Shown: in pieces, positions 33,169 through 56,512 of the stretch | How positions within the stretch are numbered: the first letter of the stretch is position 1 | Layout of the letters: each line of letters opens with the position of its first letter | NCBI GenBank assembly: GCA_001724265.1 | Contig: MEDY01000035.1 | Location: 62,001-118,512 of the forward strand | From: Rhizaria sp. SCN 62-66 | Taxonomy: Eukaryota | Direction: 5' to 3' | Length of the DNA: 56,512 bases | The notes under the pieces: model-generated | Databases searched by the model: none | What the model saw: only the letters and a program-made list of their open reading frames with translations | What the model was told of the DNA's origin: nothing | Position numbers and translations under genes: made by a program

Positions 33169-36100
33169 ATGTATTCCCGCGCACTGAGTCTCTCCCCATC
33201 TGGTTCGCCATCACTGGTCGCGCCCCCCGCCGGCTCCGCTGGCTCCACCGGCTCTGCCTCCGCCGTGGCGGCCGCCGCCGCCGCCGCGGCCGCCGGCCTC
33301 ACCGGCCTCGCCCCCGCGATGGGCGCCATGGGCCCCGCCCCCGCCCTCGGTGGCGGCCTTGTCAGCGCTGCGACACCCGTCAACACGGCTACCGCGACCG
33401 CGTCATCCTCCTCGAACGCAGGCGGTCTCAACAATCTCAGCGGCGGTCTTCATAGCGGTCTTAACGGCGGCGTTGGTCCGCTCACCCTGCTCGGCCTCGG
33501 CCACGCCGCCGCGTCCGGCTTCGGCTACGCTGGCATGGGGCTCAACACGGCCGTCGCCGGCGTCCCCGGTGCGGGAACCGGTGCCGCTCATGGTCTCACG
33601 GGGCTCGGCTTGGCGCTCACTGGCACAGGGGCACACGGTCCCGGCGGCGGCGGCGGCGGCGGTACACATGCCTCACACGTGCCTGGGAACGCGCACGCGC
33701 ACTTGCTGCAGTCGCAGCACCCGACTGTGCAGGCGCTCGCCGCGCAGCTACGGCTCGCCAATGCGCTGCCCGCCGTCGCCGTCAACGGCGGTGGCCAGTT
33801 GCATCATCACCACAACCCCACTGGTCATCACGGTGCCGCTGGCGGCGCCTCAGCACTCCATGCCGCCGGGCTGCACAGCGCCTCTGGTCTCGCCAACACG
33901 GGACTCACGGGTTCCGGACTCTCGGGTGCTGGGCTACACACCGCAGGGCTCGCAGGCTACGGCGGCGCGCTGGGCGGCCTCGCCGGCCTGGCCGGCTTGA
34001 CCGGCGGGCTAAACGGTGTCATCGGCGCCGGCGCCGGCACCGGCACGGGCGGTGCGAGCGGCTACGGTGCCGTTTCGAACGGCAATGCACTGGCGAACGG
34101 GCTTGGCGCTGGGTCGATCAACGCGCTGACGAGCGGCGTCTTGGGCTCTGCGGGGCTCGGGTCCTCGCTTAATGGCGGCGGCGGGAATGCGCTGGGTAAC
34201 AACCTCAGCAACAGCGCTCTGAACGCCGCGCTGAACTCGTCACTGGCGATGCCGTCGCTGCAGCAGCAGCATCACCAGCAACAGCAGCAGCTGCACCAGC
34301 TCCAGCAGCTTCAACAAGCGCGACAGGCGCAGTTCATCCAGGCGCAGATCTCACAGCTGCAGGCCGCGCAACACGCCAACTCGCAGCTGCAGCTGCAGCT
34401 GCAGATTCAAGCAAACCAAGTGCAAGCGCAGGCCCAGCTCCAGGCGCAAGCCCAAGCCCAGGCTCAGGCGCAGGCGCAAGTTCAAGCTCAAGCTCAGGCT
34501 CAGGCCCAGGCACAGGCGCAGGCGCAAGTGCAGGCTCAGGTGAAGCTGCAGATGCGTGCGCGCGCGCAGGGGCAGACTCACGCCCAGGCGCACGCACTAG
34601 CTCAGGCGCAGGCGCAAGCTCAGGCGCAGGCGGCTCAGGTGGCACAGGCCCAAATCCAGGCTCAGGCTCAGGCGCAGGCGCAGGCATTGCAGCAGGCAAG
34701 TCCGCTCACTCTCGCGGCCCACCTGCAGTCGATGACGCCGGCGCAGCTGCTGGCGTTATCGCAAGCCGCCGCCGCAGCCGCCGCAGCCTCGGGCTCCGGC
34801 GGCGCGGGCGCTGGTGCTGGGGAGTTGGCCACAATGCAGCACCTGCTTGCATCGAGCAACTCCACCGCAGCGGCGCAGTCTGGTTTACCGCTGTCTCAGT
34901 CCGCGCACTCGTCGTTCGCCGCCGGCGCCGCTGACCCCGCGTCGGCCTTCGCGCAGACTGGGCTGGGGGCGAGTTCGCTGCACGCTGGGGCGCCGCCGGG
35001 CAGCGCGGCCGCGAACGCGATGGCGGCCGCGCTGTTGGCGCACTTCGGCGTCAACAACGCCGGCAGCACTGGTGGCGGTGGCTTTGGCGGCGGCGGTGTG
35101 AGCGGCAGCAGCAACGGGACCAACAGTCTTAGTGCCAGTGTGGGTGCGCAGCTCAACGCTGGCGTCGCCTCGCCGGGCACGTCCCCGGCGCTCAGGCCGT
35201 CTGGGAGCGCGTATCACAGTCTGTTTCACGGCGGCAACAGCGCAGCCGTCGCGGCCGCCGCAGCCGCCGCCGTGGCCGCCGCCGCGCATCCTTCATCATC
35301 ATCTTCATCCTCGCTGCTGTCTGGCGGCGCTAATTCAGCTCTGATGCGGCTGCCGCTGGTCACGCCGTCTCCTACCCCTGGTGGCACCGCAAACGCGGCT
35401 ACGACCGCCGCCGCTGCCGCGTCCGGAGCCGGGGGGTCCGGTGTCAGCCCTGTCTACAGCAGCGGCTTTGCCAATAACAACAACAACAACGCGAGCAAGC
35501 ACGCGCTCAACAGCTCCAGCACCAGCACCAGCGGCAGCCTCGTGAGCCGCAACACTGCCTTCAGCTCCTACAACTCCCTATCAAACGAGGCGGGCAGCAC
35601 CCCTCTCCAGGGCTCCGTCGCCGGGTCTCTGTCCGCGTTGTCCGCGGCGAGCGCGTTGGGCGCGCCCCCGACGTTTCACCCAGTGTTCGCGCCCGCCGGC
35701 CTCGCCGCCCCCGCGGCCCCGGCGCCGCCGCCGCCGCCGCAGGCCGCGCTGGTCTCGGCGCTGACCCCGACCGCGGCCGCGCACGCCGTGTGGTGGTTCG
35801 CCTCGATGCTGCGTGCGTCCTCCGCGTCCGCTTCCGCGCTGCTCGCCGACACGGGGCTCCTGTGCGCGCAGCTGTCGGACGACCTACTCGACGCGCGCGC
35901 CCGCTGCCCGGCCCCACGCACCCTGCGCGTGCCCCCGGGCGGCGAGGTGGCTGCGATCCTGCGCCGCGAGCCGCGCAACAAGGTCGCCGGTTTGGGCGGC
36001 CGCGCGCCTGTCACGGGGCCCTGGCACGCACACGCCGTCAACGCCGCACACGCCGCCAGCGCGGCCGCGGCGACGGCGGCGACCGTGGGCGCGTCGGCTG

Positions 36101-39100
36101 TCGCCAGCGCGCAGCCGCTGGCGTCCTCGGCCGGCGGGTCCGGGTCCGCGCCCGTGCTGGCCGGTACGCTGCCGCTGGGGTCCAATGCTGACGCATCCGC
36201 GGGCGGCTCATCATCGTCGCTGCGCGTCTACGGCGGCGCCTCCAACATGCCCGAGGCGCGCGTGCTGTCCCCGTCCGTCCCGCTGCAGCCAGAGTCGGCC
36301 GCCGGGCTGGCCGCGGTGGCGCGGGCCGCGGTGGCGCAGTTCCCGCGCTCGTCGGCGGCCGCCGCGGACCACGCCGAGACGGCGGGGCTCACCGACGGCG
36401 GCGCCGCGATCTCGGCCGCGCTGCTGCCGTTGACGCGGCCTAACTACGGACTCGCGTCGGTCGAGCGCACGCGCGGGCACGGCAGCGCGTACGGCCCCGT
36501 CGGGGGCGGCGTGGGCGCTGGTGTCGGCGCCGGCGGTGACGAGGACGACGACGGGGAGAATGGACCGAACAGCGCGGCCGCCGCGATCGCCGCCGCCGCC
36601 GCCGCGTCGTCGACGACCGTGCTGATCAACTCCGGCGCCGCCGGTGCCGTGTACCTGACGCAGGCCCAGGTCGACGCGCTCGGCTACTTTTACCTGCGCA
36701 CGCCCGCGGCCATGTCCCCGCAGGCGTGGCATCCCGCCGTTGCGTACGGCATGCCGCCCGCGCACGGCCGCGCGTCGCTGCGCCACCCCGCGCTGTCGCT
36801 CGTCTCGCTCTACGGCGGCCGCATGCTCAAGCGCGCCGCCGTCGGGCCGCCGCTCGGCGACCCGCGCGACGCGGCGCTGGTGGCCGCAGGGCGCCACGCC
36901 GGGTACCGCGACGAGCGGCGGCTGCGGGCGCGGCTTGCAGGCGCGGGCGCGAGCGCGCGGCGCAGCGGGCAGCAAGTGCTGAGCGGGGACCCCGCGCTCA
37001 CGCAGAGCTGGCTGCTGTGGCGCGAGCCTTACGTCGACCCCGAGGACGCGGACCTCTACGGCGATGAAGTCAGCCTCGTCACTCCCGGCGCCACCGCTGC
37101 ATCCTCTGGCGCTGAGATTGCCTTGTCATTATCTTCACCCTCATCATCCTCGACTGCGTTGACGACGGCGTCGATGGCGATGCCTGCGAGCGGCCAGCAA
37201 CGGCATATACCGCCGCACATGTTCACATCGCTCTTGCCGCCTGTTGACACCGGCGTGATTTTTTCGGAACACGCCTCGCAGCGGATCTGCAACATCGCAG
37301 CCGCCGCTGCCGCCGGCCCCGGCGCGAGCTTCACTGCCTCCCTGGGTCCGACGCCCTGCGGCGCCACCGCCGCGGCCGTGGCGTCGTCGTGGATTGCGCG
37401 CCGCGGTGGCAAGCTGGGCCCGCCCGTGTGGGACTCGTTCTCGTGCACGCACGGCATCTCGCTCACGGACGCGTCCGCGGGCGTGTCGCCCACCGCGGGC
37501 GGGGTGTTGACGCCCGCGGCGATCACGACTATGTGCAGCATCATCGCGACCGCAGTCCAGCTCCAGACGCCCGAGGAGGCGAGCCCGCCGGCGTCGGGCC
37601 GCGCCGCCGTGGCCGCCGCCGCCGCCGCGACGGCCGCGACGGCCGCCGCCGTGCGGAGTCGCGAGAGCGCCGTGCCGCCGCCGCTGCCGTCTGCGGTCTA
37701 CCCCCCTCTGTGCATCGGCGCCATCGCGGCGGGTGCGCCCGTCTTCACGGCGCCGTCGGCTGAGGCCGCGCTGCTGCTGTCGCGCGCGCCCTGCTTCCTC
37801 CCCACCATCGAAGCCGGCATCGTGGGTACGGCCGACGACATCGAGTTCCTCTCGTTCCTCGCGGGCCGCCTCGCGATGCTGTCGCAGCTGGAGCACATGG
37901 CCGACGCCGCTGAGGCCGGGGCGCCTGCGGGCGTGTTAGACGCCGGCGCCGCGTCGCGCGCCATCCAGCTCGCCACCGCGGCCGGGCTGAGCGCGGTGGT
38001 CGCCGCGCTTATTATGCCAGATGAAGACCCGACCCCGTCACCGCTACCGGTCGCCTCCACGACCGGCTCCGGCTCTGGCTCTGGCTCTGGCTCTGGCTCC
38101 TCGGCTGCTAGCTGCTCTGACTCGAGTGCGACGGTGCTGGTTAAGCTGGAGCCGCGTGCGGACAGCCGCAGCAGCGGCCGCAGCAGCTCCGGCTCAACAG
38201 CGTCAGCGTCTGCGTCTGCGTCTGGTGTCAAGGCAGAGCGTGGTGCGGCAAAGCTTGAGCCGAGCGCGAATGCACGCGCCAACTCCGCCGACAGCAGCAT
38301 CAAGTCCAGCACTGCTGATGCCGCGAACAACATCACAGCAAGCAGCGCCAGCGCCAATTTGAGTGTGAAGGCGCCTGCGAATGCGGCGGGGGCGCGGGCT
38401 AGGACCGAGACTGCGGCGGCGGTGGAGGAGGCGGAGCGCGCGCTGGCGACATCGCGCCGCATGCCGCTGCCGGACAGTCCCAGCGGCGACATCGACAGCG
38501 ACGCCGGCAGCAGTCGCAACAATGCGGTGGCAATGGCTGACGGCGATGACGTTGCAACCAATGACGGTGAGATTGACACTGACGTGTACGCTGCAGCCAA
38601 CGCCGCCGCGGACGACCAGGAAATCGGTGATGGCGTCGACGTTTTTGCGCTGCTGAACAACCTCTCCGCGAACAAGCCCAACGAGAACAACAAGAGGGCC
38701 CACCCTCAGCAGCAACAGCAACAGCAGCAGTTCGAGGAGGGCCTTTCAGCGAACGCCATCAGTATCTCAAGCGCGCACGACACCAGCTTCTCCAAGATCG
38801 CCTCCGTGCCCGTGGCGATGGCGTCACACCGGCGGTACTCCCCCCACAACCAGCAGCAGCAACAGCAGCAACAGCAGCAGAAGCTCGCTGCCCCCGCGCC
38901 GCTGCGGCCGGCGACCGCGTCCATCGCGTCCACGCTTTCCGGCATCTTCTCCGGTCCGGGCGGCGCCGCGGCGGCTGACGGCACCGGGTCCGGCGACTCC
39001 GACCCTGCGACGCGTACCCCCTCATCCGGCTCCACCACGGAGGTCGCCACGCCCGACGCTGTCGCCGCCACCGCCGCCGCCGCCGCTTCTACCGCCACCG

Positions 39101-40095
39101 GCGCCCTTAATGCTGTCGGCCCCCCGCCGCCGCCGCAGCAGCAGCAGACGACGACGACGCGGGGCAGTCGCTCCCGCGTGGGTTTGCTTCGCGCTGTGTC
39201 CGCAGACGCGGCCGAGAGCGGTGGCGGCGGCGCCGGCGGTAGCAGCGGCGGGTCTGGGGCGGCGCAGCGCAAGTACACGGTGAATATGATGTCGCGTGTG
39301 GTGTGGGACGATCCCGCTGCAATCGCCGCCGCAGCCGCGCAGTCCGCCGCACGGATCGCAGCGCACAAGAACGCGACTTACAACAATAGCATTATCATCA
39401 ACAACACATCGAGCAACAACATGAGCAACGCGATCACAAACGCCAACTTCACCTCGAGCGTGAGCGCAGGCTCTAACCCTGCGATGTCGTTGTAGCTGAC
39501 TCGCGGCAACACCGTCCCCTCTTCTTCCGACGCTGCTGCGAACGGTCACGCTCATGTCGGGAGCTCTAGCGCGCGCGTGGGTGCGAATCCGAGTGCGAGT
39601 GCCGCTGGCGGTGCTGTTGTGCCTGCCGTGCTGGCGCTGCCTGCCGCGGCCGAGGCGAGCTCCCCGCCGCTGATGCCGCGCACACTCCCTTGCTCCGCCT
39701 CTCTGGGCTCCGTCTCTCTTGACCTCGACGGCGCACTGCCTTTGGCTGCCGCTACCACTGCTGCCGCTACGGTTGCGGCCGCGCCTGCTGCGGCCGCGCC
39801 TGCTGCGGCTACGGCTGTGACAGTCGCCCCGGCGGTGGTCGAGCCGCTGTTGCGCGACAAACGCAAGAAGTCCTGTCGCCGCTTCTGGGAGGCCGAGCGG
39901 GCCGCTGCTGAAGCCACCAAGGCTGCGCGCGCCGCCGCCGCTGCCGCCACAGCCGCTGCTGCTACAGCCGCGGCGGCCGCCGCGGCAGCGAAGGCAGCAT
40001 ATACTTCACAGAATGCGGGTGCGCCGTCAGTGCCTGCGGTCACTGGTGGGTTTCCCACGTTGCAGCTGCAGTCGAGCCTTATCCAACAGCAACAA

Positions 40096-40138
<43 letters not shown>

Positions 40139-41937
40139 TACAGCAACGGACTCAGTTGTTGCAGCACCAGAGCCATGGAGCGCGGCCTAACTTAACGCTC
40201 GCGCCGCAGAGCGGCACTGGCGCAACCGCGGCCTCCTCCTCCGCTCTCCGTGACACCGACTCTCTTGCGACTGCCTCGATCCCCGCGGGCGCGGCGACTG
40301 GCAAGACTGTGACTGCAGCAGTGGCTTCGGCGGCCGCGGCTGCGCTCATGTTCGCGCCGGTCACTGCGCCTGCCGCCGCCGCCACCTCTTTCGCCGCTCC
40401 AGCTACGACTGCGATGGCGGTTGCTCCAGTTGCTGTTGACGTCTTTGCCGCTGCCAGTGCTGCCGCGCCCGCGCCTGTGTTGTCTCTGCGCCGCCGATTC
40501 GCGTCCGTCTGCGTGTCGCCTGCAGTGCGTTCCACTCTGCCCGGTTTCGGCCTCACCAACGACAGCGACATGGGCAGCTTCAGCGACAGCCACAGCAGCG
40601 GCGGCAGCAGTGGAGTCAGTGGGATCACAATCAGTAGTGGCACCAGCGGCGGCAGCGACATCGATGCCGCCACCGCTTGCGCACCTCATGTAGCAGCAGC
40701 AGCAGCGGGCTATTCTGCTCGCTCTTCCGTTGCGATCGACGGTGCTGGCGACGGTGGCTATGACGACGACAACGACGACGCTGAGAACATGCCTCCCTGG
40801 CCCAACTCTCAGTCTCTGTCGCAGTCGCAATCTCCACCACATTCCGCCTCCGCCTCGGCCTCATCTGCCCACAGTCTCTCCTCGTCTGCGGCGTCCTCTG
40901 CAGTGTCTTCCGCCGCGTCATCGTTCTCGATTCCATCTTCAGCGTCAGCGTCGCGCATCGGTCTCTCACACACTGGCACTGCTCTGCGCTCTGGCACTGG
41001 TGCTGCCCCCCGCTCTGCATCGACGGCCGGTGTCCACCGTACAGCCACAGTCGCGGGCTCAGCCGCAGCCCCGCGCGCGCCGACGGCCACCCGCGCCTCA
41101 GCCGCTGCCGCCGTGACTGCCGCGAACTCGCGCCCTGCGCCTGCGCACGTTGCGTCGTCGGCGTCGAAGCTGCATGCTCACACCGCTGCAGAGCTCGTTG
41201 CTGTGACGCACGCTGGCGCTGGAAGCGTGCCGCCGCCGCCGCTGCCGCTGTTGTTGTCACACAGTGCGGCGCCGCTGGGCCGGTCACGCCGAGTCTACGC
41301 TCCACCCGCGCCCGCGGTCGCGCCCGCGGTCGCAGTCGCGTATCCGATGCGCACTCGCCGGAGCTCCACCACTGCTGCTGCTGCCTCCGCCTCTGCCTCA
41401 GCAGCGAACTCTGACTCTGAATCTGACTCTGATACTGCTGGCGATGATGCTGACGCATGTGAGCTGCCTCGCCCCACTCCAGCCGCTTTGGCGGCAGTCG
41501 ACTCCGCTGTATCTGCGATTGCTCGCAATAATGCGGCTGCAGCTGCAGCGGTGTCTGTGTCGCTGGCACAGCGCCGCAGTCGCCGTGTGCCGCGGACCCC
41601 CGCAGCGACGCGCCTCGTGCGCATGCTCGACAGCAGCAGCGCGACCAATTCCACCGCGAACGCCATCGGGACCACTGCGGCGCACACCAGTGTGCGTCCG
41701 ATGACGGACTCCGACGACGCTGCCGTCACCGAGGCACATGCTGAGACTGAGGCTCATCCGACTCAGGCCTCTCGGACTGGAGCGCCGACGCGGACGCGGA
41801 CGCGCGCTGCTGCCGCTGCTGTTACTGCTGCTGCCGCGGCTGCTGCCGCGGTTGCTGCTGCGGTGGCGGAGGCGCCGACGCCTAGCTCTGCGCTGCAGGC
41901 TCTCGGAGGCCGTCCTCGCGCGCGTCGCATCGCGTAA
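33169..41937 (+). CDS. Giant intronless low-complexity hypothetical protein (~2922 aa), one in-frame TAG
   Basis: Track ORFs 33169..39495 and 39577..41937 share one frame, separated only by TAG 39493-39495; the intervening 27 codons ([27 protein letters not shown]) are open and coding-like. Ends TAA. Confidence 0.7.
34417..34686 (+). repeat. Degenerate hexamer repeat CA(G/A)GCN encoding a Gln-Ala dipeptide tract
   Basis: [19 protein letters not shown]... over about 90 codons inside the 33169 gene. Confidence 0.85.
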
Positions 41938-43204
41938 TCACGCTGCACGGCAACACGCACGCAGTAATAAAAATAATGAGAGCAATTCTCGTCTATGCGA
42001 ATCACCAACTCGAACAGTCTAAATAACCCCAAATCCCTCTTCTTCTTTAGTCTCCCAATCTTTTCTTCGTTTCTTTCGGTCTCTGTCTCCCTGTTTGTGA
42101 TCTGCTCCTGGCTACCTCCTGTCTGTTAAGTCTTTTCTTTGTTGACTCTGTTCGGATCGCTCAGATCTCTTCTCACTCGTGCGCGGTTATCTTCACTCAC
42201 CACGCGACAATTTTCTGTGCTACTCTCTTTCACAGTTTGTCTTTCACACGCTTCTTGTCAACAAACAATGTAGCGTGACGCGTCTCTTTTTCACCGGCGC
42301 ACATCACACGATCCTATCCGCTGCCACGCTGTGTCTGACATAATCCTTCAATGTAACATTTGCCGCCATTCATTACGTCATCATATTTTACGTGTACCGT
42401 TTTCTCTGTCAGTTGCGTTGTTCAGTCCTTCCTATTCCACTGTGTGGCTGTGCCTAAGCGATTCGCTATGCACACTTTCGCCGTTGTCTCATACCCACGC
42501 AATGATACGTTGCTCGTGATGGGTGTTGGACGCAGTGCTGTCATATTTGTCAGTGTTTGGATTTTGTTTGGATTTCGAATGATAGGATACCTAGAATCAA
42601 TAATTACCAATGCTATTACGTAATAAAGCAACAGCAATATTTAAGAACATTTGCTGGTTGGTAATGTACAGTACATACAACACATAGCTCAGTGGTGCCT
42701 CGTCTTTGTTAAAGAGTAAGTCAGAAACCGAGTCAATTTAATCAGTTAGCTTGAGTGTTCGTGTATTCCTCAAATACATTGACTCAAAACATTCTCGCAA
42801 ATGAAGTGTCATCCGAATAATTGCATGTACTGTGATTCAAGCGGCGAATGAAAGAGTAACAAATTTCACGACTACGAACGAGGATTTCAATTATTAGATT
42901 TCAATTATTATTTTTGTATTGTTGTAAATAATGACATGGGGGTGTTTAGTGTAAATAAAATATGTTTGTTTTAAAAAGCGAAAAGACTACAAGAGGGGGG
43001 TTTGTACTGTACTTGACTAGCAATTTTGAAAACAAAGATGCTCCACCTCACTCACACACACTCGATCGCTGCTGAAAATGCTGACGCAGTTGACTTGTCC
43101 CCATTTTTAAAATCCGTTTGCTTGTTTTGCACGAGTACTAAATAACAGTAGCAGTAACAAAGTCACAGAGAGGTTTGGTAGGTAACAACAAGTCGGTCAA
43201 CAAC

Positions 43205-46200
43205 TTAGAACGAGGTGATGGGCTGGAGCAGACCAAAGGCGCTGGTACCGGACGGGATAGGCTTGCCAATGACGATGGCAGACGAGGGCGAGCGGATATC
43301 ATCCGTGTCGCCACGCATGCACGAGTCAAGGATGAACTTCATCGACGTCTCGAACGTCGCCTTCTGCAGCACCGACGCGTGTGAGTCCATACCCATGCGG
43401 TTCATCGGGGTGTATCCGCCCCAGAACGTCATGTAGTCGGCAATCAGCAGCAGGTGACGCGGGTCGACACCGATACCGTAGACGGCGAAGACGCCAGAGA
43501 CTTCCTCTTTGATGGCCGCGCGCGCGGCCTCGACACCGTAGCACTTGAGCAGAGCAGCGATATCGTTCGACTTAATGCGCGCAGAGTCGGCTTCTGGGTG
43601 CTGGAACACTGCGTGGAAGTTGACGCCCGCAGTCTGCACGATGCGCTCCTTGATGCCCTTGACGGAGCGCTCGAGCACGACGGCCTTGGTGATGTTCTTG
43701 GTCTGACGCACGAGGCACTGGTCCATGACCTTCTCGATGAGCGAGAGCATCAGCAGCTTGGGCTGCGACGCCTCCGTCACGATGTTGACTTCGAAGTACT
43801 TGTGGTGTTCCGTGTCAAACTCGACGTTGGAGATGTGCGGGAAGCGGCGCCAGTTGGACGACAGACGGCGGATCAGGGCTTCGAGGCTGTTCTCGTCGGC
43901 CTCGGCGGCCGCAGCAGAGGACTTGCTCGCCTTGGTGAGAGCCGACTTCTTGGACGACTTCTTGGAAGAAGAGCCGTCGTCGTCGTCGCTACTGTCGGAG
44001 CCGGAGCCAGAGCCGTTGTCGCTCGAGCTGTCGTCGTCGGCGTCGGTGGTGGCGGCATTGTCGGCCGCATCAGCGTCCTCAATCTCCTCCTCCTCCTCTT
44101 CCTCCTCTTCGTCGTCGTCGTACGAGACGTGCTCCTGGCCCTTGCGGCTGCGCTTCGAGTCCTTGACACCCTCTTCGTCCTGCTTGTTCGAGCGGCGCTC
44201 AGCGGCAGTGCTGCCGCCCTCGAGCAAAACGTCGTTACCGGCCTCGTCAATGTCGCCGAGGTTCTTGCGCTGCACCAGGGCCATGACGCCCGTGGAGCTG
44301 GACATGGCCACAGAGCGAAGCTTGGTGCGCACAATGGTGTTGAGCTTCGTCGCCATCTGCGTCGACACGCACTGCACTATCGAGCGCATGCCGAGCAGGT
44401 TCTTCTTGGCCCAGGCACTGCTGAGGTCCTTAAGCTGGACACGCACGCGGTACACGCGCTCGCCGTTGACGGCGCCGAGCGACTGGCGCACGTCGATGCG
44501 CTCAATGCACTCGTTGAGCGAGATCCGGTTCAGCTTTGCAGCGAGCATCTCGGCGGCGTCGACGGGCGAGCCGGGCATGATGGGGATCTCCATGATAGGC
44601 GTGGACATGTGGTCAGAGGCCGTCATGATGATCTCACGCAAACGCGGGATACCGAGCGTGACGTTGGCACCACCGTGACCGGCAAGGTGGAACGTGTTGA
44701 GGGTCATCTGCGTCGACGGCTCACCGACGGACTGCGCTGCAAGCACGCCGACGTTCTCGCCAGGAGGCACGAGGCAGCGCGCAAAGTTGAGGTTCATCAT
44801 GTAAGCAAACTTCTCGGGCGTCATCGCGCCAGCGATGCTGTTGCGAAGGAGGTCCATGTTGGCAGCCTGCGTGGCCGCGACGGCCGTCAGCGCCTCGAGC
44901 TGCTGCTGCTGCTGCGCGGTGGCCGACGAACGGGAGACAGCCTTGGTGAGCGACGCGATCTGCGCCGTCGTTTTGGCGTTGTCGGCCTCGAGCGCGAGCA
45001 GCCGGCGCTCCAGAGAGACCTGGGCGCGCGCGGCGTGGCGCAGCGACGAGTCCGGGTCCGCGGAAACGTAGGCCGAGACCGAGTCGTGGAAACGCTCGGC
45101 CACAGCGCCGAGCACGGCACCGGGCGGAAACGCGCTCTCGATGGGGATCATCGTGTCGATCTCGTTGCGGATCGCGCTGATGGCCTCGAACCGCGATTGG
45201 CGCTTGAAGGCAATGCGTGCCTTGAGCTCGGTGACCTTGCTCTCCTTGCCGTCCTTGATCTTGTCGGCCAGAGAGCGGTCCTCCTTGGCGGCCTCGTGTG
45301 CGGAGGCTTCCTCGAGGTCGGCCAGCTCCTTCTGCTTCGCCTGGCGCTCCGACATGTAACGCTCGGCGCTGACGCAGTCGAGGATGTTGGTCGCCGTGCT
45401 GGGGTTGAGCTTGTGCACGAGCGGGCGGTAGTTCTCCGACAGGAACGACAGATTGCCGAGGTATGCAGCCTTGGTGATGTCGATCGAGTCCTCACCGTAG
45501 TGGAACTGGACGACCGAGCCGTCCGAGTCGCGCACAGTCTGGTCGTACTGCACCGTGAGCGACTCAAGGTGTTTGACCAGGCAGCGCTGGAGGTAGCCGG
45601 AACGCGACGTCTTGACGGCGGTATCGACGAGACCTTCACGGCCGGCCATGCAGTTGCCGACGATCATGGGGCGCGACGCATATTCAATCTCCTCGGCAGA
45701 GTTGGAGCTGGAGCTGCAGCGGGCACGGCGGGTGACGATGAGACCGTGCGGGGGCACAGTGACACACCAGACGTCGCCCGTGTAGGCAACGGACTTGACG
45801 TCGGCGCGCGAGAGCACAGGCGCGGCGGCGCGGTCGAGATCAGTGTAGTGCACAGCCCAGGCCTCGGTCTCGGACGACTGGCGGGTGAAGAAGGCCGAGT
45901 AACCGGCGTGGAGGAGCGCGACGATGAGCTCGTCACGCAGCGCCACAGACGCCGTGAAGATGCAGTTGTCGCTGACACTGGAAGAGGAAGAAGAGCCGTT
46001 AGCGGTGCGGAGACCGGTGACGAGAGCGCGGAGCTCCGGCACCGAGAGCGTCGCCCACCACGAGGGCAGCGTCTTCTCAGTCTTGGCACCGCCGAACTCA
46101 GCGGCAAAGACAGCGAGGAGCGCGGGCGCGGTGACCGCCACCACAGTGCGGCCCTCGGACCCAGCCTCAGTGGTGGCGCACTGCAGACCGAGGTCGGCGG

Positions 46201-49200
46201 TGAGCTGGCGCACGTACGCCGCGCCGTCCGCGGTCGTGGCAGTGACCGTGAGTGCAGTCGCAGAGGCAACGCCGGCAGAGAGCCAGTAGCCGACGAACGC
46301 GTTGAAGGCCGTGCGCTGCACGTCGGTGGCGATGTTCAGCCGCGCGTAGACCGCGTCGACGGCGGACGTAGCGGCCGCGACGATGCCGTTCTCGGCGTAG
46401 CCGAACATCTTGAACGACGAAGGCGCATTCGGCTTGAGGAGCTCCTCGGCGGTCACCTTGACCGGGGACGCGGCCTTGTCAGACTGCAGGAAGAGGTCGT
46501 GCTCGCCGGTGACAAGCAGCGACACGCGGTTGCTCTCCTCCGTCGAGTCAGCGCAGGAGTCGGTGGCCCAACGCGCCTGCTCGGCAGCGTGGGTGACCGA
46601 CACCATGGGCTCGCGGGCGGGGTCGTGCGCGCGGCGGACAAAATGCGTCGCGGGCTCGTACGCCAGCACCTTGCCAGCGGGGTCGTAAGAGGCAAAGCGC
46701 AGAGACTCGCCGGCAGCGAGCGCGCGCTCGATGGCGGGGCCGAAGAGGAAACCGCGGTCCGTGAGCACCTGGTGGTCCTCGGCGAAACAGTGGAAGTAAT
46801 ACTCCTGCGGGCGGATACCGGTGAAGAAGCGCTGCGAGATGTAACCACCGGCGCGCGGCTGCGGGTCGTAGCGCGCGAACGAGGGCAGAGTCTTACCGGC
46901 CTGCGTGGTGGGCACACGGCGGCCTTCGAGCTCCTGCTGGCCGAGCAGGCACGAGATCTGCGAGTGGTTCACCATGGAGCCCTTGGCGCCGGACAGAGTC
47001 ATCATAGCCATGTTGTTGCGCGGGAACGGCACGCGCTGGCCACCGGGCAGACAGGCCGAGATGATGGCCGACGTGCAGCCGTTAAGAGCGCCCTTGACGG
47101 CGCCGTCGAGCAGCTCGCCGGCGTTGGCCGTGGCGCCGAAGAAGCGCTGGATGGCCATGTTGACGGCGTTGGACTCGAGCAGATCCTCCTTCTTGGCGAC
47201 CGAGAGACCGGCACACTCGGCGGCGGCGGCGATACCAGCGAGCGCAGAGTCCTTAATGAGGTTCTGGCGCGCCTGGTCGGCCGCGGGCAGCAGCAGCATG
47301 TCGTCCATGCCGCACGTGAAGCCGTCGTACTGGAGCACGCGGGTGAAAAGGCGCGCGAAGATGGTGAGCAAGTCACCCGCGGCCTTGGCGCCGTAGAGCT
47401 CGTACACGGCGTGCACGAGGCCGTACTTGGACGCGCCGAACTGAGCCTTGTCGATAACACCCTGCACGAGCTCGTTGTCGCGGACGATGACGGAGCCGTC
47501 TTCCTCGGCGGCTTTGCCCCACGAGGAGCCGGGCACCTTGGCCTTGACGGGGTTTAGGTTGAGGGCGGGACGGCCGTACGTGACGTGGTCCATGACGCAC
47601 GAGATAACCTGCTTGCCAGTCCACAGCGCGCGCGGCTTGAGGATGGCCGGCACGGGGGTCGCCAGCGGCGCGTTGAGACCGGAGTCGGAGACGCCGAGGT
47701 AGAGGAACTGCTGGAAAAACTCCTTGTTGAGGAAGGCGTCGCGCTGCGTGAGGCGCACGCCGGCGACGACGTGGTCCTGGATGAGGCCGCGGAGCGGGTT
47801 GCCGGACGTCGGCACCGTGTACTGGTTGTCGTTGTTGCAGATGTCGTAGGCCTCAACGCGGGCAAGCTCGTTCTGAGGGAAATGGAGGTTGATCTCATCA
47901 CCGTCGAAGTCGGCGTTGTACGAGTTACAGTTGGCATAATGCATGCGAATCGTCGACTCGTTGTACAGCACGCGCGCGATGTGGGTCATCATCGATGGCT
48001 TGTGCAGCGTCGGCTGGCGGTTCACCAGCAGCACATCACCGGACTTAAGGTGACGCAACACAACCTTGGGTCCCGCGTCGCCGGCGTCGGATGAGTTGAT
48101 CATCTTCTCCACGCCCACGGCGCCCGAGCCACGGCCAGGCTGCGAGGACGCGTCGGCGTTGAGCGTCTTGGCCAGGGCGGTGCGCTGGTTCAGGTCCATC
48201 ATCTTGAGGTCCACGCGGCGGCCGCGCCCGTCGATGATCGAGTTCGCACCTGTAGATCGATTGAGAGAATCAAGAGAGGGAAAAAAGAGTGTTGTGAGTT
48301 AAATGAAAGTTGATTCAAGAGTGCATTATGAACTAGTATTGTTGTTAGAGCAAAAGATCAGACAGACGCCCATGTCTCCACGGGGTACAAGATAAAGAAT
48401 CACAAAGTTTCATATGTCCCTATCTAGAGTATCATCATTAAAAATTGCAAAACAATGAAAAAAGAAACGCAAAATGACAATAGAATGGTGAACGTACCAG
48501 GGTGAACGTCAGGGCCGTTGATGACGGCCTGGCGGAGCTCCTCGACGTTGTAGGGCGTGACAGGCTGGGGATAGGTGAGAACCTTGGCAAAGATCTCCGG
48601 CACGCCGATTTCCTTCGTGTGCAAGTACGGGTCGGGCGAAATAACAGAGCGCGCGGCGAAGTTGACACGCTTACCCATCATGTGCTTACGGAACAGACCC
48701 TGCTTCTTCTCGAGAACCTGCTTGATACCGGCGCCTTCGCTCTTGGAGAGCTGCGAGCCCGTCTTCTCAGAGTCAAACAGCAGGTTCACCTGGTGCTGCA
48801 GCTGCACCCAGGCGTGGATCACCTTGTTGCGCATGTCGTCGCCCATGTTCTCCACGGCAGCAGCGCCGCCCGCGCGCATCGCGGCATCCTTAGCCGAGGC
48901 GCCGGCGCCAGCGGCGACACCGGCGGCGGCAGAGGAAGACGCGGCGGCCGTCTCGGTGACGGTGCGGAGGATCTCGTCGTTGAGGTCGAAGATCTTGCGG
49001 TAGCTGACGTTCATGTCGTTGTCGAAGGCCTCACCGTTGACCATGCGCGGCGGGCGCAGACGCGAGGGCGGCACCAGCAGCAGACGGTGGAAAAAGGCGC
49101 GGTAGTCAGCAGCGTTGAACGAGGGCGACGCGACGGCGTAGGTGGACTCGGGGAAAAAGAGAAGCTTCACGAGGTCGTGCTCCTGCTCCCACAGGTACTG

Positions 49201-50373
49201 CATGTGGCGCTCCACTTCGTTGGGCAGCAGAATGCGCGTCTCGGTTGTCTCCGTCACGGCCACGGACGAGGCCATGACCGCAGACTCCTTGAGGTTCTTG
49301 CCGCTGGGAGGCGCAACCATGCCGTCGTTGTCGTCGTCGTCGTTGTCGTTCTGGCGGCCCGCGGCGTCGTCTTCCGACATGTCCGTCTCGTTGTCGTCGT
49401 CGCTGGCGTCGTCGCTGCCGGACTCGCCGTCCGAACCGCCGCCGCGGCGCTTGGCAGCGGCCTTCTTCTTGGCGGCCGCGGCGGCGGTCTTGGCGCGCTC
49501 CTTGTCGAGCTTCGCCTTGTTGCTGGCGAGACGCTTGTCGAGGTTCTTGCCCGTGACAAAGCCGCTACCGGCGACCTTGCCGTCGGAGTCCGTCATGGGC
49601 GCGGGGCCCGAGAGGACGGACGAGATGACGATGTTGCTGTTCATGTTGGCCTTTTGCGAGGTCGCCGAGGGAACCATGAAGATCTTGGTGAAGCCGTCGC
49701 GACGGAACTTGGGCGAGATGGCCTTGCAGTGGGCGCACTTGACGACGCCACCGCAGGCAAGCATGAAGTTCTTGATGAGCTTGTTGCGGATGTTGACGTC
49801 GTGCATCGAAAGCTTCTTAGAGCCCTTGCGGCGGTCGCACTCGCGTGCGGCCTTGGCGATCTCCTTGTCCAGCGCCTCGAGCAGGGCCTCCATCGAGTCG
49901 TCGATCGCGTTCTCCGAGTCGTCCTTGCGGGTCTTGAGGGCCGTGGCGCGGGCGGAGAAAAGAGACTCGACCTCGAGGGCGCGGGCGATGGAGCCGGCCT
50001 GGATGTAGAGCAGCTGCGCTTCGAGGATCTTCTTCTTCAGCGCCGGGATGCGGAGCTTGTGGCATTTGAAGCACTTGATCTGCAGGAGGCGGTAGAGCTG
50101 GGGGAACATGAAGACGTTGTAGACGGGCACGGCGAGCTGCAGGTGGCCATTGTGACCGGGGCAGTGCTTGTCGCCGAGACCGCATGTGTGGCACTTCTCG
50201 AACATGTCCAGCGCGCCGAACGCGCGATCGTAGAAACCGCCACGCACGGGTTGGCGCAGAGTGTCGAAAGAGAAAGAGTTGGTGATTTGCTTGACGCTGA
50301 GCATCTTGATCTCTTCATCGTTGAAGAAGCCGAAGCCCAGGCCGACGACCTGCTTGTCAATGATTTCCGGCAT
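43205..50373 (-). CDS. RPA1: DNA-directed RNA polymerase I largest subunit (RPA1/A190), 2 exons, intein-containing precursor of 2306 aa
   Basis: Exons 50373-48498 and 48249-43205 (intron GTACGT...CAG, phase 1, giving HP-G-ANSII). Zn clamp CHTC...CPGHNGH, KQGLFRKHMMGKRVNFAARSVISPD, NRQPTLHKPSM, catalytic YNADFDGDEINLH, Pol I-type [36 protein letters not shown], acidic expander-like loop, no CTD. Ends TAA. Confidence 0.98.
45653..46789 (-). mobile_element. Intein (379 aa) with degenerate LAGLIDADG homing endonuclease, in frame within RPA1
   Basis: 1137-nt in-frame insertion between EYYFH and CMAGREG. Block A CFAEDHQVLTDRG, block B LLVTGEHDLF (TxxH), EN-like blocks FVGYWLSAG, LVTGLRTANG and IFTASVALRDELIVALLHAG, block F YTGDVWCVTV, block G PMIVGN followed by Cys+1. 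Confidence 0.95.
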
Positions 50374-50892: not shown

Positions 50893-53800
50893 TTAAGGGA
50901 GCCAGTCCTCAAAGAGGGCGAGCAACGCATCGAGCTCGCGCAGGTTGCGAATCTCCGCCACCGCGCTCCGGCCCGCCAGTGGCGCCACGTTGCGGAGCTC
51001 GCGGAACACACCGCACTGCGCAAGACAGTCTGCTGCGCAACCGGGCCCGCACTGGATGAGCGTGCCGTGGGCCACGCGCGATCCCAGAGGCGTCATCGAT
51101 TGAAAAGGCCGCGCGGATACCGCCTTAGCAAGCGGAGGCGTATTCGCAGTCGCAGTGGCTGCAGCTACTGGCAGCGCAATGGATGTTGTCGTAGTATCGC
51201 AGCAGCGGGCAATGTCAGCCGCACAGTCGTACGCATTGGTCCGGTCAGCAAACCACCTGCCCAGAGCCTGCGACTGCGCCTGAGCAGTGACAAGGCAGTA
51301 TCGCGGGCCGCCCAGCGCCGCCACAGCCGCAACAGCCTCTGCAGCGTTCTCGGCTATCGCGCCCACTGACGCGGCCGCCTCTGCAGCCGGTGGTGGAGCT
51401 GCGAGTGCATGTACAGGCAGCGCGGCGATACGTTCACCGGGAAACGCAGGTGCAAGGCCGAGGAGCATTGCCCAGGCAAACGCCCACATCAGCCCGCCGC
51501 GGTCACAACTCTCGCCGTCACAACAGCTGCCGTTGTTGTTAATGTGGTTGTTGTTCTCCTGCTGCTGCGCGACGGTGACTGCAGCAAGATCGACGCGGTC
51601 TTCCTCGAGAGCAAGCGACACAAGCACGGCGCGGGCGGCGCGAACGCCGGGCAGAGCGCGGAGGGCGCGGGCGGAGGCGCGCACGCGGGCGGCCACGGGG
51701 GCGGGAACCAGCCGCGTCAACGCAGCCACGGCCGCAGCGGCAGTGGCAGTGACGTCCGCAGCGGCGGCAGGAGTAGCGTCTGCGTTGGCAGTGTGATTCG
51801 CGCCGGACAGCCACGCCTCAATCGCATTAGTGTTGCTCGCGCCGAGGGAACCTGTCGAACTGGTACCTGCGGAACCTGTGGCACTTGTGGTACTTGTGGT
51901 GCCTGCAGTGCGGAGGCAGTCGTAGAGCAGGCGCGCGCGCAGCAGCTGACGGGCGCGTGCAGCGACAATCTCCCCTTCAGTGCGCTGCACACGGCCACCA
52001 TTACCGACAATATCACAGTCGTCCGCCATAGCGACAGCGGAGGCGGTGGTCGCGACTGAGCTTGCCTCAGATGAGACATCGGCGGCAGAAGGTGGGTCAG
52101 AGGCCAGCAACGCCGCCGCCGAAGCGCTCCAGTTCTCGTGTGCGGCATTAGCGGACTGTGGCAGCGCGAAATGCTCGGTTTCGGCCGCAGTGAAAGGAGA
52201 CCGGCGTCGCAGCCAGTGCGGGAGCGGGGTGACTGAGATGTGCCTGTGCCACAGAGCCGCCCAGCTCGCATCCGGACCCGCCGACTGTGGCTGCTGTGGC
52301 TGTTGATGCTGTTGTGGCTGCTGCGGGGTGGGTGATGGCAAAGTGCGCGGCACAGCGGCGTAGGGAAGCAGCGCGGGCGGCACGTCACAGCAGCGCGCGC
52401 AACCAACGCCACTTTTGCCACAGCTCTCTGTGATGTTTGTCTCAGTCGAAAGGCCAGCGCAGGAGTCACACAGTGAAATCGCGGGCGCAGAGGTCGGCAG
52501 CACAGGCCCGGTCAGCGGGGGACCGAAGATAGCGCGGGCCAGCTCGCTGGCCGCGGCCGCCGCAGCCTCGTACACACGCGCCGCGGGCTCGCTGTCACTC
52601 GAGTCGCCAGCGCCCGTGCCCGAGTCAGAGCCGGAACCGGTGCCGGTGTCGGCGCTGTCGCCGGGACAGTCGAAGCGCAGCGGGAGGGAGGTGAGATCCC
52701 AAACGAGACCGTGTCGCGGCGCCATAGCGAGCTCGAACTCAGTCTGCTGCTGCTGATGCTGCTGTTGCTGCTGTGGGTGCAGTTGTTGAGAGAGAATCGT
52801 TGTGTCGGCGACCCCAAACCCAAAGGCAGGGTTTGCGCCGGTCGCGGGGCCTGCGACTGTGTGCGGCGCAGTGACCGTGAGCACAGAGCCTGCGACTGGA
52901 GGCAACGCCCAGCGCGGCGGCCGTCCCGCCGCGACCCAGTCCTCCGGCGCAGCAACATCATCAGCTCCCGCGGGCGCAGCCGCAACTTCAGCGGTGGCGG
53001 CAGTGGCGCGTGCAGCGGCGGCGTCGGCGCTCGCCTTGCGCGCGCGCGCGGCGTGCACCGCGGCTGCGAGAGCGACAGCCGCCGCGGGGGTTGTCGCCTG
53101 CGCCGCGGCCGCGGCCTAGGCAGCGGCGAGCGCGGCGTCAGCAGCGGCGACGGCGGCGAGTGCGGCGTCAGCAGCGGCGACAGCGGCCAAAACGGCCTCG
53201 TGCGCACTGGCAGACGCTGTAGGGGACGCTGCAGCGGCGCTGCCGGCGCCCATAGGCACAGGCGCAGGCGTAATGTCTCGAGGCGTCAAACCACGAACCG
53301 TGTTTAACTTCGCACTGGAATTGGCCGTGTTTGCGGGGCCGCGCCGGAGCCAGGGCTCCGAGCCCGCCAGCGCCCCCGCGGAGACGGTGGCTGCGAGTGC
53401 GGGTGCGCAGTGCGGCGTCACAACACAGTGCGCGCCGACCGACGGCTGAGGGCGCGGAACATCTGGCCCAGCGCAGTCAACATACTGCTGTTGTTGCTGT
53501 GCGCTGTGGAGTGTGTGGTCGGCGGAGTCAACGGGGCCCGGGACGAGCACGGGCGCGGGCGCGGACTCCGGCCGGTCAGAGAAAAACGCCGGCGTGAACG
53601 ACGCCTCCGTCGAAGTCGCCGCCGCCGCGGCGCCACTCGCTGCCGGACTGGAGGCGTACCCAGCGCGCGCTGCGGCCAGCCCAGACTGCGCCTCGGCCCG
53701 CGCCAGCGCCAGAGCACGCGCGGCGCGTTCGCAGCACGAGTGATCCCGTGAAGAAGCGTCACCGTGCGAGGCCCAGAGGTCGGCCGTGGCAACGCGGCGG

Positions 53801-55077
53801 CGGATCTCCCACGCCAGCGCGTCCCCCCGCCCGCCGCCGAGCGCCGCCAGCGCTGCTGATGGCGCCAGTCGGGCCGCTGCGGCCGCGAGGGCGGTCTGCG
53901 CGGTCTGGAGCACGCCGTGGGCGTGGGCGGCGGCGGTGTACGGCGAGAGCAGAGGGTGGGCGATGGGCACGGCGGCGGGGCCCGAAAGCGGCCCGCCGCG
54001 CGCACTCTGGCCGCAAAAGCGGCAACACGACGCGGCTGACTGCGGCTGGGACTGAGACTGCGTCTGATGTTGCGTGTGGTGTTGTAAGTGCAGAGGCGGT
54101 TCAGGGCCCAATAGCTGGCTCACGGTCACCGCATGCGTGCGGTTCGCAGCGTAGTAATCACAGTCATCGACGGTTAGAGCATCTACCGCAGTCGCAGGCG
54201 TCGTCTCAGAGGCGATATCGGCCTCGGCGAGCGGGAACGGCGTGGCGGCCCAGACCGCAGCCCACACGTGCGGCGGCAGGGGCGGATGAGACTGCAGCGC
54301 ATCGGCGCGCTCGATGCACTCTGACAGCCACGCGCCGCCCGCAGCAGCCGCGGGCGCCGTCGCCAGCGCACTGCCGCCGCCGTCGCCGCGAGCGAGTGTC
54401 GTTTGCGACTCTGAGGGGCGCAGTGAGGCGGCCCAGCGAGCGGACTTCTGCTCGGACCGCCGCAGCTCGACGGCGCGGGCGATGGCGGCGCGTGCGGAAG
54501 ACGGCGGCAGCGCGCGCGGTAGCGCCGTCACGGAGTAGGGGGCCGCAGCAACCGCCGCGGCGGCGGCGGCGCGGGAAGAGGACGAGGAGGACGAGGAGGA
54601 CGAGGCAGAGGCGTAAGCGGTGGCGGAGGCGGCGGCCGTGGCTGGGGAGGTGAGGCGGCGGCGCGCGTTGGCGAGCGGGACCTGTGCGGGGTGCCGCGGC
54701 GGCAGCAAACGCAGGCAAGCGTCGGTGACGGCCGCGGCAGCCGTGGCGGCGGCGGCGGCGTCGGCGGCGGCGGACACGGCAAGGAGCTCGTCCAGCACGA
54801 ATGCCAGCGAAGGGAAAGCTGCGCCGATGGCCACCGCGGCCTGTAACGGGGAGAGCAGGAGCCCCGACAGCGCGGGCGGGCGCGCGCCGGCGTCGCGTAG
54901 CAGCGCAGCGAGCAACGCAAGGAAAGGCGGCAACAGTGTGGGTGCGCCGAGCAGCGTGTGTTCGATGAATCCCGTGAGCGCGGCTGAGAGCGGCTCCAGC
55001 GCAGTCGTCGCGTACGGGTCAGCCGCGTGTGTCAGCGCAGCCGCCGTCTCGCACAAGGATAACAAAAGTGCGTCCAT
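50893..55077 (-). CDS. Ala-rich hypothetical protein (~1394 aa), one in-frame TAG
   Basis: Track ORFs 53116..55077 and 50893..53058 share one frame, separated only by TAG (53118-53116) inside a poly-Ala run ([14 protein letters not shown]). There is no AT-rich spacer between them, and the downstream ORF starts at GTG. Ends TAA. Confidence 0.7.
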
Positions 55078-55770
55078 GTTGGGCGCTGAAAAGGCGCAGC
55101 CAACGAAGTCAGCGGCCGCGGAGGATCGAGGGCGGAACAGTGAGATGACGCGGCACTGAGAGATGTGGCGAAACGCGGGCGGTCTACGGCAAAAATATCA
55201 GGGGATTGATCGTCAATACAAGTGGTTTAACGGTAAGATACGCGATTCAAATCAGGACAAATCATATCTTAATTTTAGTGTCACGGGGATCGATTTGGCT
55301 GAAGATCTTTCAATATCGTCTATCTTGACGGTGGGTCTCGCTGTGGTGTTGGCGGACTCAGGTGTAGATTGGGCGAAGACGAGTTGCTTTATCGACTCTG
55401 CACGATGCGGCAACGACTGTCAGTCCGTTTACGACTTGCTTCTCAGGCTGCACGCATTGTTTGTACTTGTACTTCATTTTAAATCAATCATATACTGCCT
55501 ATTTATCCCCACGTATCCGCTTTCAAATCACTCTCACGATCGTGAATCATGAATGCTTCTGCCCCCTCTATTAGCTCCTCTAGAGCAACCCACGCGACGG
55601 ATAACTGCAACCAGGCAAGCCTCAAAGGTTGTCTTTAGTTCTTAGTCTCTCCCAACGCCGCTTCTTTTGGCGAAAGGCCTCTCTCTGCGCCCAGCTGCAG
55701 GCTCGCTTTTCCACCCTCGTCCTCGTCACTGGCTTGCTTCCCCGCCGCGTCAGCTTCTCCCGTGCGCCCC

Positions 55771-56468
55771 ATGTCGTCCCAGCAGCAGACGACGCAGCCC
55801 GTGGCTCCCCCGCGTCCCTTTGTGGCCCAGGGCGCTGCTGCAAACGCCGGCTTTTCTCCATCGGGCCCCGCGCGTCCCCCGCGCACGATGCTCCCCACGG
55901 CGAGAACGGCCGGCTCCGGCGCTGGCTCAGCCGCGGCGGGCACGGACGCGTCCGCGGGCGAGTTCGACGCCGAGACGACGCTGTTCCTGCGACACGCGCA
56001 CCGCTCTGTTGCGCGTTTCCGCGTCACGAAGCTGTCATCGAAGCCTAACGGCCCGTCGCACGTGCGCGTGCTGGAGATCGACGCCCACGACCGCTGTCTC
56101 CGCATCACCGCCGACCCCTCCGCAGTCAAGCCCGCCCGCGTGGGCGCTGACGCTGACGCCGCGGGCGGCGCCGACGCTGCCGCGGCCGCCGCTGCAGCTG
56201 CTGCGAAGCCCGCGCTGGCGGAAATCAAGCCGCCGCACGTGTACGTCGTGCTTCCGCTCAGCTCCATCTCCCGCATCGACCGCTCCGCGCTCGACCCGAC
56301 CTACCTCTGCGTCGTGCCCACGTTCACGGCCAAGATCCCCGCGCTGTCATTGCACTTCGCGGACCTGGCCTCAGTCAAGCAGGCCGTCGAGCGCATCCAT
56401 GCTCTCGCGCCCGGCGTCATCGAAGCCGTCACCGACGCGGCCGCCGCCGCGGGGCCCGCCGCCGCGGG

Positions 56469-56502
<34 letters not shown>

Positions 56503-56512
56503 GGCACCGGCG
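55771..56512 (+). CDS. 3'-truncated protein with a PH-like beta-rich N-terminal domain
   Basis: Missing from the ORF track because it runs off the window. From ATG 55771: MSSQQQTTQP...VARFRVTKLSSKPNGPSHVRVLEIDAHDRCLRIT...VLPLSSISRIDRSALDPTYLCV...LSLHFADLASVKQAVERIHAL, i.e. strands then a terminal helix. An upstream in-frame ATG at 55549 is reachable only through TAG 55636-55638. Confidence 0.65.

Follow-up and report, generated by a model that had tools for sequence, protein, structure and literature searches.

The accessible portion of Goodwin 2006 (PMC1635734) places all seven eukaryotic RNA polymerase inteins of its day in second-largest subunits, archaea being at that time the sole known source of largest-subunit inteins (Mja rPol A' and A'', Nph rPol A''). 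In the available part of Green 2018 (PMC5784728), 21 nuclear 'DdRP' inteins are entered under KOG0214-0216, and the available sections of Gallot-Lavallee 2023 (PMC10710043) report one RPA1 intein site common to two Anaeramoeba species, together with largest-subunit inteins in Nucleocytoviricota. [quoted passage not shown] SCN 62-66, referred to below as the window. A first-pass annotation of the window had proposed an intein at 45653-46789, in the bridge helix of the encoded protein. Sequence comparison and structural modelling make it very probable that the gene encodes a Pol I largest-subunit precursor with a class-1-type, immobile intein that would be spliced from the bridge helix. The groups KOG0214-0216 mentioned above are presumably second-largest subunits.

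The Cre RPB2 and Pno RPA2 inteins resemble the window intein in having Cys1, a +1 Cys, a LAGLIDADG domain, a Gly-Asn end and highly conserved sites near the active centre, but they reside in second-largest subunits and are likened here by their description in the accessible text only (PMC1635734). Relatives of the window's intein family occupy the EMERD/C and IINPH/..IPSRM sites of second-largest subunits (a slash marks an intein boundary throughout). The Anaeramoeba RPA1 intein is likewise nuclear and located in the Pol I largest subunit, and many Anaeramoeba inteins are spreading among non-homologous host genes; Anaeramoeba is, however, a marine anaerobic metamonad, and the likeness supported by the available sections is one of host gene (PMC10710043). 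The Mja rPol A' intein also lies in the bridge-helix-bearing subunit, but it is archaeal (PMC1635734; intein-free mjA' in PMC2776397 and PMC2988716, all in excerpt). The bridge helix of archaea carries Ala as its +1 residue (mjA' A807), which rules out the window's site for that intein. The PI-SceI, PI-TkoII, Tli VMA and Pho VMA inteins (PDB 1vde, 2cw7, 7qsu, 7qst) have the same Hint plus LAGLIDADG architecture (Z 20-25), but are 11-16% identical to the window intein, are active nucleases and reside in other hosts.

A literature search on RPA1, RPB1 and RPC1 inteins returned the Anaeramoeba paper alone (PMC10710043), gave no intein reported for RPA190 by name and, among the matches listed, no paper describing an intein in a bridge helix. 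The site occupied here, between a His and a Cys (H/C), was not described in the searchable main texts, supplements lying outside the search. The suggestion that either host gene or insertion site might be undescribed therefore fails for the host, RPA1 being named in the available part of the Anaeramoeba paper; it survives for the site inasmuch as no main-text description was found, yet the same site is occupied in two public proteins (P0006 and P0208, discussed below). RPA1 is thus already known as an intein host, and the H/C site is present, unremarked, in public protein sets.

The minus-strand translation of 45653-46789 is a stop-free run of 379 residues reading CFAEDHQVL...RPMIVGN, and the N-extein up to it ends in ...RPQEYYFH. 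In the translation of the long open reading frame (ORF) that spans the insert (43205-48214), the junctions read ...GIRPQEYYFH / CFAEDHQVLTDRGF ... ASRPMIVGN / C-extein. The coordinates and the 379-aa in-frame insert of the first-pass annotation proved exact, the strand, which it had left out, being minus; a plus-strand reading of the same interval, open but meaningless, was dropped. The gene model yields a 2306-aa precursor in which residues 1113-1491 are the intein, and a mature RPA1 of 1927 aa, in agreement with the ~1927 aa predicted earlier. The RPA1 frame is open over 6918 nt, with NADFDGD and the trigger loop intact, and exon G+C content (GC) is 62-68% compared with ~40% in the 248-nt spliceosomal intron. 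An open frame is by itself weak evidence here, since DNA of 68% GC also has a 1367-aa antisense ORF; this frame (43454-47557, plus strand) and many other long antisense ORFs are a by-product of a third-position GC (GC3) of ~86%, not a gene. The homology of the insert (E down to 1e-85, with an allelic copy) and its modelled fold exceed chance by far.

The identity of the host was assessed from the C-extein, which scores 410 bits against S. pombe RPA1, 410 against human RPA1 and 359 against yeast RPA190, compared with 206 against RPB1 and 188 against RPC1. Because the RPA1 scores are the higher ones, the host is the Pol I largest subunit, as had been proposed; according to Pfam the exteins contain Rpb1 domains 1-5, and NADFDGD is present. 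The last N-extein residue aligns with H998 of S. cerevisiae RPA190, H1011 of S. pombe, H967 of human RPA1 and residue 816 of Rpb1, and the first C-extein residue with RPA190 C999, S. pombe C1012 and human C968. In every solved Pol I, the two residues on either side of the insertion point lie next to each other. Since the flanking residues are neighbours in all three sequences, removal of the insert neither loses nor duplicates anything and restores the host sequence exactly, as first claimed. In Rpb1, the bridge helix spans residues 810-845. In archaeal mjA', H806 to G813 belong to a mutagenised set in the N-terminal part of the bridge helix, and the residue matching +1 is Ala (H806-A807), according to the accessible text of PMC2988716. 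Alignment to Rpb1 816 and mjA' H806 thus places the insertion at the start of the bridge helix, again in line with the original proposal.

To what extent the +1 Cys belongs to the host was seen in a survey of 121 RPA1 proteins, namely the best 120 of 2724 matches (the window's protein included) and P0006. A pattern search found 105 RPA1s uninterrupted at the H/C site, 101 of which have Cys at +1, indicating that this Cys is native to Pol I. Of the 13 proteins that escaped the pattern, inspection showed 11 more to be uninterrupted, P0208 to contain an intein and P0228 to have an unclear gene model; P0227 shows a 16-aa oddity. The alignment of the C-extein with chains of Pol II, Pol III and archaea starts only at the residue after the +1 Cys.

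Relatives of the insert numbered 18 proteins in a word-indexed search and 709 representative clusters at E ≤ 1e-3 in an exhaustive HMMER search, 341 of them at E ≤ 1e-10. Their hosts are mutually unrelated (RPB2, PRP8, family-B DNA polymerases, kinases, CPSase, Ku, topoisomerase, G-alpha, dynein and others). Boundaries were examined in 166 family proteins. Cys stands at position 1 in 118/129 projected N-termini, most of the exceptions being projection errors of one residue. Gly occupies the penultimate position in 133/140, and these inteins terminate in Asn (114 of 140) or Gln (23 of 140). At +1, 120 of 139 have Cys, 11 have Ser, 6 have Thr and 2 have Ala. The flanks are variable, with the -1 residue spread over 17 amino acids. 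When 173 complete inteins were aligned to the family HMM (counts approximate by 1-2, one protein being counted with two overlapping definitions), Cys1 was present in 159/159 aligned relatives, T94 and H97 of block B were kept in 155 and 171, W341 and C342 of block F in 168 and 172, and G378 of block G in 159, position 379 being Asn in 138 and Gln in 26.

Block F usually has Asp at the position taken here by Cys. Class 3 inteins are defined by a Trp-Cys-Thr triad with a block F Cys nucleophile and no nucleophile at position 1; this class was rejected, since every aligned member has Cys1 and Val, not Thr, stands two positions ahead of the terminal Asn. The near-invariant Cys of W341-C342 (45764-45769), together with Cys1 and Cys+1, puts three conserved cysteines at the splice centre, and redox-sensitive splicing is conceivable from this arrangement.

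An AlphaFold2 model of the insert, built from a 30-row alignment, reached a pLDDT of 93.0 and a pTM of 0.93. Against the PDB, Foldseek ranked 13 endonuclease-bearing inteins first (E 2.9e-12 to 4e-7), with I-DmoI next. VIA-align gave 12 endonuclease-bearing inteins at Z 25.1 to 19.9 (TliVMA 25.1 with 316 residues aligned at an rmsd of 5.0, PI-TkoII 24.7, PI-SceI entries 21-23, PI-PfuI 20.2); mini-inteins, hedgehog and BIL domains followed at Z 12-16, the mini-inteins aligning over ~130-150 residues, and rows 1-49 of 50 were inteins or other Hint domains. The N- and C-terminal parts of the model together make up the horseshoe-like Hint fold. Neighbours of the insert in a protein-language Atlas carry LAGLIDADG_3, Intein_splicing and Hom_end_hint, which we treat as a lead only. 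The fold and the family signature (Cys1, block B Thr/His, block F, Gly-Asn end, +1 Cys) bear out the assignment of the insert as an intein.

Several observations weigh against this interpretation. Pfam, NCBIfam and PHROGs matched nothing relevant in the insert; the best phmmer match in the PDB, at E 0.81, was an unrelated protein; a 30-sequence family profile retrieved 0 PDB chains at E ≤ 1; and 0/30 family members match a Pfam intein family. At the C-terminus, Asn379 is preceded by Gly378 where the class 1 criterion, and the canonical end, have His. Neither junction of the insert is bridged by an RNA contig and, DNA contamination of RNA libraries being possible, the RNA data no more than hint at retention in mRNA. 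A second, intein-free copy of RPA1 may also exist elsewhere in the genome. The first-pass annotation had treated the lack of a Hint HMM match as disproof of the intein. Pfam and NCBIfam indeed gave none, yet that test is too strict, structure and comparative anatomy overriding it; a curated profile match is a criterion of detection, not of mechanism. Standard Pfam, NCBIfam and PDB sequence profiles miss the family, so that surveys relying on profiles probably underestimate the number of nuclear inteins.

Removal of the insert as an unusual RNA intron, with no protein splicing, is a most improbable explanation. The RPA1 gene does carry one spliceosomal intron, and the junctions of the insert are without a spanning RNA contig, but the insert DNA begins TGT and ends AAC, with no GT..AG ends, and its GC and codon usage are those of an exon, the true intron having ~40% GC. 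Its length is in frame, and conservation is at the protein level over hundreds of relatives. In addition, a 211-nt contig from the poly-A metatranscriptome X5 is identical to 46219-46429, in the intein interior, and no joint skipping 45653-46789 was seen in any of four runs.

That the junctions are artefacts of a chimeric metagenome assembly, the window being a metagenome contig, has a negligible probability. Contigs from separate runs, X1 (43000-48387) and X4 (45609-46124), cover the junctions without mismatch, three runs contain at least 95% of the window's sampled words, a locus from another collection (L001) is 100% identical to the window, and P0006 has the same architecture. In a related-locus search with a single protein, at a sensitivity suited to close relatives only, metagenome contigs gave L001 alone and viral contigs gave no related locus and hence no viral link. 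No second copy of the intein family was found within the window, and Rfam gave no match on it. In the intervals 46799-46949 and 47663-48047, X4 and X5 contigs differ from the window at ~8-10% of N-extein positions; the differences are mostly spaced by three bases or multiples of three, and X5 derives from a poly-A RNA library. Divergence of this kind suggests that those samples contain a strain or species related to the window's organism. At 44899-44918 and 49323-49472, GC-rich triplet repeats code for low-complexity RPA1 inserts that are acidic and rich in Ser/Ala. Joints in the DNA run X1 near them were treated as spurious, their sides being 20-27 letters long in low-complexity GC-rich repeats with many partial contig matches.

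The endonuclease domain has the LAGLIDADG fold (I-DmoI at Z 11.8 on model residues 158-324 with VIA-align; Foldseek E 1e-5). Columns 172 and 264 are, in our assumption, the catalytic positions of the LAGLIDADG motif. The window intein has Ala172 and Asn264 there, both acids being replaced, and should therefore no longer be able to home. Asp occupies the two columns in 81 and 86 of 173 family members and, since both are acidic in just 60/173, nuclease decay is common in the family; the P0006 intein retains one of the two acids (N, D). The codon usage of the insert matches that of the exteins, as the first-pass annotation had noted: GC3 is 0.855 compared with 0.866, 0.886 and 0.860 in three extein parts, and the correlation of relative synonymous codon usage between insert and exteins is 0.951 (0.932 between extein halves; 0.451 for an antisense control), which amounts to codon amelioration. 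Replaced nuclease acids together with host-like codons argue for long residence without mobility. In addition, the Hint parts of the window and P0006 inteins are 62.3% (81/130) and 62.7% (47/75) identical and the nuclease part 37.1% (63/170); with the Hint parts the better conserved, selection acts on splicing, not homing. The sequence evidence points to an old, immobile, fixed resident.

A dead homing endonuclease and the missing penultimate His would also suit a degenerate former intein that no longer splices, in which case either this RPA1 copy would be a pseudogene or paralogue, with another gene supplying Pol I, or the insert would stay in the mature protein. RPA1 copies are known from the window only, and we infer both splicing and a single RPA1 gene, which leaves this explanation some room. 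However, the splicing residues conserved in the family (C1, T94, H97, W341, C342, G378, N379, C+1) are all intact, and a Gly-penultimate end is the family norm, as the 133/140 count above attests. The 6918-nt frame is open with NADFDGD and trigger loop intact, and codon usage is optimal. The contrast between 62% identity in the Hint parts and 37% in the nuclease part again points to selection on splicing, and, as a matter of general knowledge, a 379-aa domain within the bridge helix is hard to square with catalysis. We therefore regard the degenerate intein as improbable, although less so than the intron or the chimera, and the window intein as probably splicing-competent.

If it is, the intein would be translated within the 2306-aa precursor, Cys1 would attack the peptide bond at the H/C site, the N-extein would pass to the native Cys+1, and cyclisation of Asn379 would release the 379-aa intein. 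The product would be a 1927-aa RPA1 with an uninterrupted bridge helix. The LAGLIDADG-fold domain is retained but, with Ala172 and Asn264, can no longer serve homing, and selection would maintain the splicing domain, since failure to splice the bridge helix would leave Pol I non-functional. The window intein belongs to a large family of eukaryotic nuclear inteins that are divergent in sequence and have Gly-Asn or Gly-Gln ends. Inteins favour the most constrained spots of essential enzymes, and this one divides the bridge helix of the polymerase responsible for rRNA synthesis. Should the organism have a single RPA1 gene, protein splicing would be a step in all of its ribosome production.

The nearest relative of the window intein is found in P0006, a budding-yeast-like RPA190 of 2040 aa with a 456-aa intein of the same family at the same site (EYYFH/CFATDHQVL...VVGN/CMAGREG). 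The two inteins are 41% identical by BLAST over the full length and 50.9% (191/375) in a global alignment. Unlike the window's, the P0006 host is fungal, its exteins scoring 2217 bits against S. cerevisiae RPA190, 1686 against S. pombe and 1040 against human and falling inside Fungi in an RPA1 tree. The exteins of the two proteins are 43.7% identical (677/1550), and an intein identity of 50.9% beside this value fits horizontal transfer and strong constraint alike. P0208, from a protist, has a mini-intein at exactly the window's RPA1 site (EYYHH/CICEGTLVALADG...VIVHN/CMAGREG). It differs from the window intein in its length of ~147 aa, in its lack of an endonuclease and in its canonical His-Asn end, and there is no detectable sequence similarity between the two; Pfam recognises Intein_splicing in it at 3e-5, below the gathering score.

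Among the RPA1 proteins examined, public inteins occur at four sites in all, the H/C site included. One lies beside the catalytic aspartates (HYAN/CNTYNADFDGD, in P0242 and P0191), one just after NADFDGD (HVPQ/SQLARAEAY, in P0204 and P0222, of the window's intein family) and one in the trigger loop (QMTLN/TFHLAGHGG, in P0222). Together, these four catalytic-centre sites extend to RPA1 the 2006 picture for second-largest subunits. P0242 is from Gaertneriomyces semiglobifer (NCBI name), and the P0242 and P0191 inteins have canonical His-Asn ends. The P0222 RPA1 fragment holds two inteins, of which the trigger-loop one (QMTLN/SLDW...MMYD/TFHLAGHGG) starts with Ser, ends with Asp and has Thr at +1; Pfam gives Intein_splicing and LAGLIDADG_3 for it.

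The RPA1 tree contained 37 rows, 36 chosen from RPA1 matches plus the window, and was a quick maximum-likelihood (ML) run under LG+G4 with SH-aLRT support only. The window groups with P0191 and P0194 (support 100; identity at most 58%), within a 12-row clade (support 100). Bigelowiella and a EukProt transcriptome are the sole members of this clade with a name, and the clade stands apart from chytrids, Dikarya, oomycetes and an amoebozoan. With many eukaryotic groups outside its 37 rows, the tree says that the host is apparently non-fungal, and little more. Lineage assignment by the protein-language Atlas was uninformative, with plants, fungi and arthropods level at 0.98. P0191 was also considered as a close strain of the window and rejected at ~53% identity overall. 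Both P0191 and P0194 are uninterrupted at H/C and, since these tree neighbours are without a bridge-helix intein, the presence of the intein is patchy. Unrelated inteins at one site and absence in the nearest relatives make this a tractable case for the gain, loss and possible transfer of nuclear inteins.

We tentatively entertain a broader joint reading, which we think possible but rather doubtful as a whole. In it, H/C would be a site on which inteins land repeatedly, two lineages unrelated in sequence having entered it independently in three eukaryotes distant from one another; the window and P0006 inteins would be linked by horizontal transfer across supergroups, between a protist and a Dikarya-like fungus (Hint parts 62% compared with exteins 44% identical); and the family may mark intein-rich uncultured protists beyond Anaeramoeba. 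The window's family contains 74 pairs at 55% identity or above, many at different host sites. Family inteins in P0010, P0012, P0016-P0018, P0020, P0079, P0114, P0146 and P0166 are 60-68% identical to one another at different sites in unrelated hosts, including Kae1, alcohol dehydrogenase, a CK1-like kinase and topoisomerase, among others. From these sequences, the family seems to have spread recently between non-allelic sites in some uncultured eukaryote, a pattern in print so far for Anaeramoeba only. The P0020 kinase carries two inteins, one canonical (...VVHN/C, recognised by Pfam) and one of the window's family. The wider family, profile-invisible, very large and with signs of recent non-allelic spread, is a more interesting lead than the window intein itself.

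Table 1. Coordinates, in the window, of the RPA1 gene, its predicted intein and neighbouring genes
Feature	Position	Strand	Remarks
RPA1 exon 1	48498..50373	-	ATG at 50373; Rpb1 domain 1 and start of domain 2
Spliceosomal intron	48250..48497	-	GTACGT...ACAG, 248 nt, ~40% GC
RPA1 exon 2	43208..48249	-	gene model
N-extein portion of exon 2	46790..48249	-	includes NADFDGD; ends ...RPQEYYFH
Intein, 379 aa	45653..46789	-	Hint splicing domain interrupted by LAGLIDADG-fold domain
Cys1 codon TGT	46787..46789	-	N-terminal nucleophile, block A
Block B T94-G-E-H97 (TxxH)	46499..46510	-	family conservation
LAGLIDADG-fold endonuclease domain, ~residues 158-324	45818..46318	-	I-DmoI structural match
First LAGLIDADG motif, degenerate W-L-S-A172-G	46271..46285	-	family: W-L-G-D-G
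Second LAGLIDADG motif, degenerate R-T-A-N264-G	45995..46009	-	family: R-x-A-D-G
Block F W341-C342	45764..45769	-	nearly invariant across family
Block G end G378-N379	45653..45658	-	Gly-Asn rather than His-Asn
+1 Cys codon TGC	45650..45652	-	first C-extein residue, equivalent to yeast RPA190 C999
C-extein	43208..45652	-	bridge helix, trigger loop, Rpb1 domain 5
Stop codon	43205-43207	-	end of RPA1 frame
NCA2 (ATP synthase regulation) homologue	2-3574	+	neighbouring gene
AP-1 gamma adaptin	4305-7079	-	neighbouring gene

The neighbouring genes, the NCA2 homologue and AP-1 gamma adaptin, are cellular. Any ORFs of 150 aa or more between ~18.6 and 29.3 kb stay below a GC3 of 0.75. Nine long ORFs, at 7999-13881, 29262-31533, 33058-41937 and 50893-56511, have no Pfam match at E ≤ 1e-5; most of them have a GC3 of at least 0.75, and one, at 33058-39492, is 2145 aa long.

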